From Escherichia coli (GTDB lineage: Bacteria > Pseudomonadota > Gammaproteobacteria > Enterobacterales > Enterobacteriaceae): 64,000 nt of DNA. The DNA lies in NCBI RefSeq assembly GCF_003018255.1, contig NZ_CP027440.1; one strand, written 5' to 3'. A program made the position numbers and the translations under genes. Shown one piece after another: positions 7,422 through 11,730 of this stretch (the first letter of the stretch is position 1; each line of letters starts with the position of its first letter). Under the pieces are notes generated by a model. That model saw nothing but the letters and a program-made list of their open reading frames with translations, was not told the DNA's origin and searched no databases.

Positions 7422-7569
7422 CAAATTCTCCAGCAATGACAGTTAATGCGCCGATACATTCACAAATCATGCCAGTTTTTAATTTACTGTTATTTAAAGA
7501 AATTAAATTCTGTAATGCAGGAAAAACGATGTCATCGACACTAGTGACGATGACATGTGATGACAATGT

Positions 7570-8580
7570 TTATCGCGAAAGAGCAATGAGGGAGTCGCGG
7601 CGGATCAGTTTTCCGCTGAAGGTTTTCGGCGGTGTGTAAGCACCACCATCGAGCATAAATATCAGCCGCCCAATTATTTCCTGAATCATCTCAGTCACCG
7701 GAATTTTTACGCTGGAGAGCGCCGGAACGGTGTAGGGGGCAATAGCGATATCATCGAATCCGATAACTGACACCTGCTCTGGCACCGCTACGCCGCGCTC
7801 GTGTAACGCTTTCATCGCACCTATCGCCATATCGTCGTTACTGGCAACTAACGCGCTAAATTTAGCCCCACGTTCGAGCAACATTTCTACCCCTTCGGCC
7901 CCGCTGGCAGGCGTCCATTTACCGTTAGCGATAAGTTTTTCATTGAGCGCAATACCATGCTGCGCCAGCGCGTCTTTATACCCGGCAAGACGTTCAACGC
8001 TGGTGGGGGAATCCATCGAACCGGTAAGGAAAGCAATCTCCTGATGTCCGGCGTTTATCAACTCTGCCACGGCGTTAAAGCTGGTCTGTTTATGATCGCA
8101 CCAGACGCTATGGCTGCTGTTTTTGCGCAGGCGGCGATTAAGCACCATTATCGGCTGACTGTGTGCGTCAATGATGTCATCAATCTCATCCACGCTTAAA
8201 AAACGCGGGTAAATCATAATGGCGTCGCAGCGCAAATCCAGCAGATACTGAATCGCCTGGCGCTCTTCTTCGGCGCTGTGTTTACCATCTGCCAATAGCA
8301 ACTGTCGCCCTTTCTCTTCCGCCATTCGCGCGGCATGAAAGAGTAATTCACTAAAATAAATGCCGTGGTAAAGCGTGTTGGTCACGACCAGCCCCAGCGT
8401 CTGAGTACTCTTCGCCGACAGATTGCGCGCCAGCAAGTTTGGACGGTAACCGCTCTCTTCTACCGCCTGAAACACGCGATCTTTAGTCTCCTGGCTGACG
8501 TAGCCATTACCTGAAAGCACGCGGGAAACGGTCGCTTTTGAAACCCCGGCGCGCTTCGCCACTTCCAGCATCGTCGTCAT
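7570..8580 (-). CDS. ascG: LacI/GalR-family repressor of the asc operon
   Basis: ORF track frame 358 aa; start placed at MTTMLEVAKRAGVSKATVSRV (HTH) giving 336 aa; divergent from ascF. Confidence 0.92.
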   Translation of the reverse strand: MTTMLEVAKRAGVSKATVSRVLSGNGYVSQETKDRVFQAVEESGYRPNLLARNLSAKSTQTLGLVVTNTLYHGIYFSELLFHAARMAEEKGRQLLLADGKHSAEEERQAIQYLLDLRCDAIMIYPRFLSVDEIDDIIDAHSQPIMVLNRRLRKNSSHSVWCDHKQTSFNAVAELINAGHQEIAFLTGSMDSPTSVERLAGYKDALAQHGIALNEKLIANGKWTPASGAEGVEMLLERGAKFSALVASNDDMAIGAMKALHERGVAVPEQVSVIGFDDIAIAPYTVPALSSVKIPVTEMIQEIIGRLIFMLDGGAYTPPKTFSGKLIRRDSLIALSR

Positions 8581-8839
8581 CATTTTCATCCCTTTACACG
8601 CAATCAACGCAGTGTACTGCACCGTTTGCCGATTGTCCTTGCGCAATCGGCGGGAAAAATATTCAGGTGACCGGTTTCACAAATATAAAAAATGAACAAT
8701 TAACTCTCTTGCTTATTCAGTGACAACTATTCATGATTTTGTGAAACCGGTTTCCTAATTCCGTTTCAGCATCGGCATTTTTCCGTCACGTCGACTGATA
8801 ACAACTACATCTACCCTACTGATAACAGGATAAAATCCG

Positions 8840-10297
8840 ATGGCCAAAAATTATGCGGCGCTGGCACGCTCGGTGATAGCGGCACTGGGCGGCGTTGATA
8901 ACATCTCGGCAGTCACGCACTGTATGACGCGTTTGCGCTTTGTTATCAAAGATGACCAGCTTATCGACAGTCCGACGTTGAAAACCATCTCCGGCGTGCT
9001 CGGCGTGGTACGTAGTGACAACCAGTGTCAGGTGATTATCGGCAATACCGTTTCACAAGCCTTTCAGGAAGTCGTCAGCCTGCTGCCGGGAGATATGCAG
9101 CCCGCACAGCCCGTGGGTAAACCCAAACTTACGCTACGTCGCATAGGTGCGGGGATCCTCGATGCGCTGATCGGCACCATGTCACCGCTGATCCCGGCGA
9201 TTATCGGCGGATCGATGGTCAAACTGCTGGCGATGATCCTCGAGATGAGCGGCGTGCTGACAAAAGGATCGCCGACCTTAACCATTCTGAATGTGATTGG
9301 TGACGGTGCTTTCTTCTTCCTGCCGCTGATGGTCGCGGCTTCGGCCGCCATCAAATTTAAAACCAATATGTCGCTGGCGATTGCCATCGCGGGTGTTCTG
9401 GTACATCCGAGTTTTATTGAACTGATGGCGAAAGCGGCCCAGGGTGAACATGTCGAATTTGCCCTGATCCCGGTCACCGCGGTGAAATACACCTACACGG
9501 TGATCCCGGCGCTGGTGATGACCTGGTGCCTGTCATATATCGAACGCTGGGTGGATCGCATTACACCGGCGGTGACTAAAAACTTCCTCAAGCCAATGCT
9601 GATTGTGTTGATTGCCGCACCGCTGGCAATCCTGCTGATTGGCCCGATTGGTATCTGGATCGGTAGCGCCATTTCGGCGCTGGTTTACACCATTCATGGT
9701 TATCTGGGCTGGCTTTCAGTCGCCATTATGGGCGCGCTGTGGCCTCTGCTGGTAATGACCGGGATGCACCGCGTCTTTACGCCAACCATCATTCAGACCA
9801 TTGCCGAAACCGGCAAAGAAGGGATGGTCATGCCGTCAGAGATCGGCGCTAACCTGTCGCTGGGCGGTTCATCACTGGCAGTGGCGTGGAAAACGAAAAA
9901 CCCGGAACTGCGTCAGACGGCGCTGGCTGCGGCGGCATCAGCCATTATGGCGGGGATTTCCGAACCGGCGTTATATGGCGTGGCGATCCGCCTGAAACGT
10001 CCGCTTATCGCCAGTCTTATCAGCGGTTTTATTTGCGGCGCGGTTGCCGGTATGGCGGGGCTTGCCAGCCACTCAATGGCAGCGCCGGGGCTATTTACCA
10101 GCGTGCAGTTCTTCGATCCGGCGAATCCAATGAGCATCGTCTGGGTGTTCGCCGTCATGGCGCTGGCGGTCGTGCTGTCGTTCATCCTCACACTGTTGCT
10201 CGGCTTTGAGGATATTCCTGTTGAGGAAGCGACTGCCGAGGCGCGAAAGCATCAGAGCGCACAACCGACCGTCGCCAAAGAAGTAAGTCTTAATTGA
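8840..10297 (+). CDS. ascF: PTS beta-glucoside (arbutin/salicin/cellobiose)-specific EIIBC component
   Basis: ORF track 485 aa; N-terminal EIIB cysteine motif ([10 protein letters not shown]) followed by multi-pass membrane EIIC. Confidence 0.94.
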
Positions 10298-10305
10298 GGA
10301 TGAAA

Positions 10306-11730
10306 ATGTCAGTATTTCCAGAAGGTTTTTTATGGGGCGGCGCGCTTGCCGCCAACCAGTCTGAAGGTGCGTACCGGGAAGGTGGCAAAGGGCTGACCAC
10401 CGTCGATATGATCCCACACGGCGAGCATCGAATGGCGGTGAAACTGGGGCTGGAAAAACGTTTTCAGTTGCGCGATGACGAGTTTTATCCCAGCCATGAG
10501 GCGACGGATTTTTATCATCGTTATAAAGAAGATATCGCCCTGATGGCAGAGATGGGATTCAAAGTGTTCCGTACCTCAATTGCCTGGAGCCGCCTCTTCC
10601 CGCAGGGCGATGAACTGACGCCCAACCAGCAGGGCATTGCTTTTTACCGTTCTGTCTTTGAAGAGTGTAAAAAGTACGGTATCGAACCGCTGGTCACGTT
10701 GTGCCACTTCGATGTGCCGATGCATCTGGTCACCGAATATGGCTCCTGGCGTAACCGCAAGCTGGTGGAGTTTTTCAGCCGCTACGCCCGGACCTGCTTT
10801 GAAGCATTTGATGGTCTGGTGAAATACTGGCTCACCTTCAATGAAATCAACATTATGTTGCATAGCCCGTTCTCCGGCGCGGGTCTGGTGTTTGAAGAAG
10901 GCGAAAATCAGGATCAGGTGAAATATCAGGCTGCGCATCACCAACTGATTGCCAGTGCATTAGCCACCAAAATCGCCCATGAGGTTAACCCGCAAAATCA
11001 GGTGGGCTGTATGCTGGCGGGCGGTAACTTCTACCCTTACAGTTGCAAGCCGGAAGATGTCTGGGCGGCGCTGGAGAAAGATCGGGAAAACCTGTTTTTT
11101 ATCGATGTGCAGGCGCGGGGCGCGTATCCGGCTTACTCTGCCCGCGTATTCCGCGAAAAAGGGGTAACCATCGACAAAGCACCGGGCGATGATGAGATCC
11201 TGAAAAACACCGTCGATTTTGTCTCTTTCAGCTATTACGCCTCACGCTGCGCCTCGGCGGAGATGAACGCCAACAACAGCAGTGCGGCGAACGTGGTGAA
11301 ATCGCTGCGTAACCCATATCTACAGGTAAGCGACTGGGGCTGGGGGATTGATCCACTCGGTCTGCGTATCACCATGAACATGATGTATGACCGCTATCAG
11401 AAGCCGCTGTTTCTGGTGGAAAACGGCCTCGGCGCAAAAGATGAACTTGCTGCCAATGGCGAGATTAACGATGACTATCGCATCAGCTATTTACGCGAAC
11501 ATATCCGCGCAATGGGCGAAGCGATTGCAGATGGCATTCCGCTGATGGGCTACACCACTTGGGGCTGTATTGATTTGGTTTCCGCCTCAACGGGTGAAAT
11601 GAGCAAACGCTACGGTTTTGTCTACGTAGACCGTGACGACGCAGGCAACGGTACGCTGGCGCGCACGCGTAAGAAATCGTTCTGGTGGTATAAAAAAGTG
11701 ATTGCCAGTAATGGTGAGGATTTAGAGTAA
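10306..11730 (+). CDS. ascB: 6-phospho-beta-glucosidase (GH1)
   Basis: ORF track frame 478 aa, start placed at [12 protein letters not shown] (474 aa); GH1 signatures LTFNEIN and ENG catalytic motifs ([16 protein letters not shown]). Confidence 0.95.

Follow-up and report, generated by a model that had tools for sequence, protein, structure and literature searches.

The asc operon in a 64,000-nucleotide stretch of an Escherichia coli genome

The asc operon of Escherichia coli, consisting of the repressor gene ascG and the genes ascF and ascB on the opposite strand, was analyzed in a stretch of 64,000 nucleotides from contig NZ_CP027440.1 (assembly GCF_003018255.1), which is called the window in the following. 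With high confidence, the locus is the ordinary, intact ascG-ascFB of E. coli in its usual place on the chromosome, with hydN-hypF on one side and the hyc operon on the other. It is a textbook operon for the uptake and cleavage of plant beta-glucoside sugars in its majority state, already known and without new features. The original prediction had considered this an expected state of limited novelty, which agrees with the presence of ascG in 4699 of 5426 complete E. coli genomes (~87%).

Gene content and intactness

The gene ascG (7570-8580, minus strand) codes for a LacI/GalR-family repressor of 336 amino acids and is intact from its ATG start to its TAA stop codon. On the plus strand, ascF (8840-10297) encodes a beta-glucoside permease of 485 amino acids, an enzyme IIBC (EIIBC) of the phosphotransferase system (PTS), and ascB (10306-11730) encodes a 6-phospho-beta-glucosidase of glycoside hydrolase family 1 (GH1) with 474 amino acids. 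Both genes are intact as well. The assignments are based on the list of open reading frames (ORFs), on the RefSeq annotation, which names AscG in an identical genome, and on the K-12 counterparts b2714, b2715, and b2716, respectively. Gene order and orientation equal those of b2713-b2717 in K-12 MG1655, where asc is likewise found between hydN and hycI. Furthermore, the 5.2 kb from 7000 to 12200 recur with 100% identity in the complete RefSeq genomes of strains JNE23-011 and JNE112863 and with 99.8% identity in one more genome. In the two identical annotated genomes, ascG, ascF, and ascB are named without a pseudogene flag.

The asc region was compared base by base with that of K-12 MG1655. 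The lengths of ascG (1011 nt), ascF (1458 nt), and ascB (1425 nt) are equal in both, the same start codons are used and no internal stop codons occur. In this comparison, neither an insertion sequence (IS) element nor an indel was found in the three genes, in the 259-nt spacer between ascG and ascF or in the 8-nt spacer between ascF and ascB. This bears out the original prediction that all three genes are full-length and that ascG is uninterrupted. The nucleotide identity to K-12 amounts to 97.8% for ascG, 98.2% for ascF, and 96.2% for ascB, and the amino acid identity to 98.5% for AscG (331/336), 98.6% for AscF (478/485), and 97.9% for AscB (464/474). In total, 119 nucleotide differences were counted over 4837 aligned bases, and the amino acid substitutions add up to 22. 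Five of them are located in AscG (I195V, D314A, F315Y, S316T, and P334L) and seven in AscF (A40Q, P51S, S240R, A465T, Q467E, Y471H, and V474A), while the ten in AscB are scattered. At 97-98% identity over 4.3 kb, chance resemblance to the K-12 operon is no issue.

The domain content of the three proteins is in line with these assignments. AscG carries the LacI helix-turn-helix (HTH) domain PF00356 at residues 3-48 (76.1 bits, cut-off 27), followed by the sugar-binding effector part with PF13377 and PF00532 (Peripla_BP_1/3) over residues 60-330. It stays below the cut-offs of the NCBIfam equivalogs for other members of the LacI family (GalR, GalS, etc.), as is expected of a distinct paralogue. 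AscF matches the NCBIfam equivalog NF007311 for cellobiose/arbutin/salicin PTS IIBC proteins over residues 1-485 with 1029.5 bits (cut-off 722). Its Pfam domains are PTS_EIIB (PF00367) and PTS_EIIC (PF02378), and no EIIA domain was detected by the Pfam scan. The motif CMTRLR, which starts at residue 28 with the phosphorylatable Cys28, and the motif GISEP from residue 372 are both kept. AscB was recognized by NF007356 (6-phospho-beta-glucosidase, 1092 bits, cut-off 623) and by the Pfam family Glyco_hydro_1 (PF00232, 446.9 bits). Its glutamate motifs TFNEI from residue 177, with the acid/base Glu, and ENGLG from residue 372, with the nucleophile Glu, are retained. AscB is thus a predicted GH1 6-phospho-beta-glucosidase with intact catalytic motifs.

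In addition, the ratio of nonsynonymous to synonymous substitutions (dN/dS) relative to K-12 was calculated by the method of Nei and Gojobori. Values of 0.085 for ascG, 0.141 for ascF, and 0.063 for ascB were obtained. These low values show that purifying selection acts on the asc genes and that no decay is under way, in keeping with a genuine function of the operon in nature.

Operators of the control region and the ascG allele

The divergent control region between ascG and ascFB (8581-8839) was delimited by the K-12 comparison. It has the same length of 259 nt as in K-12, from which it differs by four substitutions and no indel. As belongs to an asc operon, it contains an AscG operator of the TGAAACCGGTTTC type, O2, together with a second, operator-like palindrome, O1. 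Operator O2, TGAAACCGGTTTCC, is located at 8742-8755. The AscG binding sequence at the ascF promoter of K-12 is given as TGAAACCGGTTTCT in PMC8667592 (Table S3), and O2 agrees with it in 13 of 14 bases, the last base being changed from T to C. The operator-like palindrome O1, GGTGACCGGTTTCACA, occupies 8666-8681 and shows no difference from K-12. The regions around O1 and O2 form an inverted pair with arms at 8654-8683 and 8738-8767. Two AscG sites at ascFB are mentioned in PMC3505978, which cites Ishida 2009. O1 would fit one of these two reported sites. It also matches the CRP-type pattern TGTGA-N6-TCACA and may, judged by this match, be read as a CRP site as well.

The C variant of O2 was found together with its 60-nt context as an exact match in 2124 of 4537 records (~47%). 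It is therefore a widespread polymorphism rather than a defect in regulation.

Two observations weigh against the reading of the locus as an ordinary intact operon. The first one concerns the promoter. No strong sigma-70 promoter was found in the ascG-ascF spacer by the consensus scan for promoters and terminators, which overall yielded fewer sites than shuffled sequence. The missing strong match would fit a weak promoter that depends on other factors. The second one is the ascG allele. The differences of ascG from K-12 cluster at its 3' end, with 12 of them in the bin 7494-7693 of the window. The 86-nt segment at 7575-7660, which encodes D314A, F315Y, S316T, and P334L, represents a minority allele. 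It is found exactly in only 77 of about 4700 records, compared with approximately 4100 records at 90-95% identity. The minority allele occurs in isolates from poultry, pig, and human. Its sequence suggests that the 3' end of ascG is a lineage allele or a small mosaic or recombination tract.

The five substitutions in AscG, four of them clustered C-terminally, the rarity of this 3' segment and the single deviating base in the published 14-nt operator could be taken to mean that the allele, alone or together with the T-to-C change in O2, weakens repression. In this case, ascFB would be expressed leakily or upon induction, and an Asc-positive strain would result although ascG is not disrupted. 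This is considered very unlikely, as the HTH and linker of AscG are identical to K-12, the substitutions are either conservative or confined to the last 23 residues, and the dN/dS of ascG argues for a constrained protein. Moreover, the widespread O2 variant affects only the outermost position of the operator, which is already non-palindromic in K-12. The sharing of the AscG allele by isolates of unrelated source points to an established lineage allele and not to a fresh lesion. There is likewise only a slim chance that D314A, F315Y, S316T, and P334L together with the change in O2 alter the effector response or the strength of repression in such a way that this lineage has an operon which is leaky or inducible by nature and not cryptic. 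No reason was found to think that the 3' allele disables the AscG repressor, and the ordinary intact operon remains the preferred reading.

Occurrence, regulation, and surroundings of the locus

In each of the 4699 complete genomes that contain ascG, at least 80% of the gene is covered in one piece, and the full 5.2-kb region reaches at least 80% coverage in 4697 of the 5426 genomes. In the lowest-ranked ascG record, from strain WL164, the gene breaks off at nt 883, where it adjoins an IS621 transposase gene. This is the only IS-truncated copy seen. Complete genomes thus show practically no large insertions within the body of ascG. The search for IS insertions in ascG elsewhere, which the original prediction had proposed as a check, thus resulted in one IS-truncated copy among 4699.

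The remaining 727 genomes, including those of sequence type 131 (ST131), are without asc and match only up to position 7575 of the window. In the ST131 example, the gap between hydN and hycI (9377-10833 of record L003, corresponding to 7576-11673 of the window) is filled by a cassette of ~1.46 kb with 44% G+C, which carries three small genes for proteins of 145 amino acids, 139 amino acids (an HTH protein), and 61 amino acids. This example retains a remnant of 83 nt of the ascB 3' end along with its repetitive extragenic palindromic (REP) element at 88% identity. It follows that the absence of asc in ST131 is a derived state, due to deletion or replacement. Genomes in which hydN abuts hycI were not found, as the concatenated hydN and hycI query gave 0 records with at least 80% coverage. 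Across E. coli, the hydN-hycI interval hence exists in two forms, with asc (4699/5426) or without it (727, including ST131). The difference or loss of asc in ST131 (PMC3917908) and the accessory status of ascG (PMC6550539) have both been published. The presence of asc distinguishes this strain from ST131-type genomes with deleted asc and can be used for typing.

The exact ascG sequence of the window is rare, with only six records at least 99% identical. This might be taken as a hint that an intact asc operon is out of the ordinary or specific to the lineage of this strain, a reading to which next to no probability is assigned. It is refuted by the population counts given above, according to which the minority state is the absence of the operon, as already published for ST131.

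The gene ascG is transcribed divergently from ascFB. In the proposed mechanism, its product, a repressor of the LacI/GalR type, would keep ascFB off by binding to the palindromes centred on ACCGGT in the 259-nt spacer. Once expressed, AscF, a IIBC protein without a IIA domain of its own, would import and phosphorylate a beta-glucoside. AscB, the family-1 phospho-beta-glucosidase, would then split the product to glucose-6-phosphate and an aglycone or second sugar.

In PMC3505978, AscG is described as a repressor for which no inducer is known and which controls a cryptic operon, and it is reported that an IS186 insertion in ascG activates transcription. The same activation is stated in PMC4403981, which cites Hall and Xu 1992. 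The original prediction that the operon is cryptic and becomes active only upon disruption of ascG is supported by this literature as far as the repressor and IS186 are concerned. The word "only" turned out to be too absolute, since cellobionic acid supports the growth of K-12-type strains with all asc genes unmutated, and this growth depends on ascB (PMC4403981). The label "cryptic" should be read with this published caveat. Regarding cellobiose, inactivation of AscG or replacement of the promoter alone did not lead to efficient growth (PMC4488073). Furthermore, ascB appears to have an extra promoter inside ascF (PMC4488073).

With its wild-type-like repressor and operators, the operon would be expected from the K-12 literature to be silent on arbutin, salicin, and cellobiose in laboratory conditions. 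Outside the window, bgl, chb, and bglA contribute as well to the overall beta-glucoside phenotype of the strain.

The classical term "cryptic" and the lack of a known inducer for AscG would also suit genes that look intact but are functionally dead relics, long silenced and drifting, so that their intactness has no phenotypic meaning. This is judged highly improbable. Strong purifying selection acts on all three genes (dN/dS 0.06-0.14), the catalytic Glu motifs of AscB as well as the EIIB Cys and the EIIC motif of AscF are retained, none of the 4699 ascG-bearing genomes falls below 80% coverage in one piece, and unmutated K-12-type strains need ascB if they are to grow on cellobionic acid. The interpretation as dead relics is already largely refuted by this. 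The intact operon is maintained by selection, probably for another substrate such as cellobionic acid.

The flanking genes hydN (6894-7421) and hycI (11888-12358) are both located on the minus strand and were taken from the ORF list and the RefSeq annotation of identical genomes. The interval under study (7422-11730) starts at the first base past the hydN start codon, so that its first 148 nt fall between hydN and ascG and are not part of the asc genes, and it ends with the ascB stop codon. A near-perfect palindrome of 28 nt (ATGTCATCGACACT / AGTGACGATGACAT) was observed at 7529-7556, between the ascG stop and the hydN start. It may serve the hydN-hypF promoter as a regulator site, or ascG as a terminator. 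The Rfam scan of 7422-11730 revealed no RNA family.

Just 3' of ascB, palindromic elements of the REP type or of the bacterial interspersed mosaic element (BIME) type were identified at 11739-11802, with hairpin-forming inverted repeats at 11739-11768 and 11759-11802. They may act as the transcript end or as a stabiliser. A near-identical 34-mer REP copy is located at 4431-4464 between norW and hypF. The REP/BIME elements account for the median of 32 matches per genome that was obtained with the 5.2-kb query.

Several further features were observed in the rest of the window. A type I-E array of clustered regularly interspaced short palindromic repeats (CRISPR) follows iap at 50366-51190. It was missed by Tandem Repeats Finder and recovered by a repeat search, with approximately 14 repeats at a spacing of 61 nt. 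According to ORF coordinates, it exceeds the array of JNE23-011 by about 245 nt (four units), which indicates that the window stems from a close relative of that genome and not from the same assembly. A complete cas operon, whose cas3 occupies 57278-59944, is located next to it. Rfam gave a single hit in the window, a sok antitoxin RNA (RF01794, 104 bits) at 60024-60180 on the minus strand in the cas3-cysH intergenic region, which points to a chromosomal locus of the hok/sok type. The variable segment between mutS and rpoS (36284-39105) contains genes for the hydroxyarylic acid decarboxylase subunits B, C, and D and for a MarR-family regulator, as annotated in the matching genome. Finally, a small gene with a TOBE domain was found at 25776-26204 between fhlA and ygbA, which K-12 is not known to carry at this place.

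Comparison with asc of K-12, bgl, and chb

The closest known system is the asc operon of K-12 (ascG-ascFB, b2714-b2716), which has the same genes in the same order and orientation, the same flanks hydN and hycI and the same lengths of genes and spacers. The operon in the window differs from it by one base at the edge of O2 and by the cluster of changes at the 3' end of ascG, and there is no structural difference.

The aryl-beta-glucoside operon bglGFB of E. coli likewise is a cryptic system composed of a beta-glucoside PTS permease and a GH1 phospho-beta-glucosidase. It is controlled by the antiterminator BglG and by H-NS silencing, and BglF has its own IIA domain. In contrast, asc is regulated by a repressor of the LacI family, and AscF consists of IIB and IIC only. 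AscF matches the BglF-type models TIGR01995 (446 bits) and NF007335 (279 bits), in both cases below the cut-off. The asc operon has been regarded as a probable duplication of bgl (PMC4488073).

The chb (cel) operon is another E. coli locus that can mutate to cellobiose utilization, and it interacts functionally with asc (PMC4488073). Unlike asc, chb is not a cryptic operon where chitobiose, its native substrate, is concerned, and its parts differ as well, comprising the transporter ChbBCA, the regulators ChbR and NagC and the phospho-beta-glucosidase ChbF (PMC4488073).

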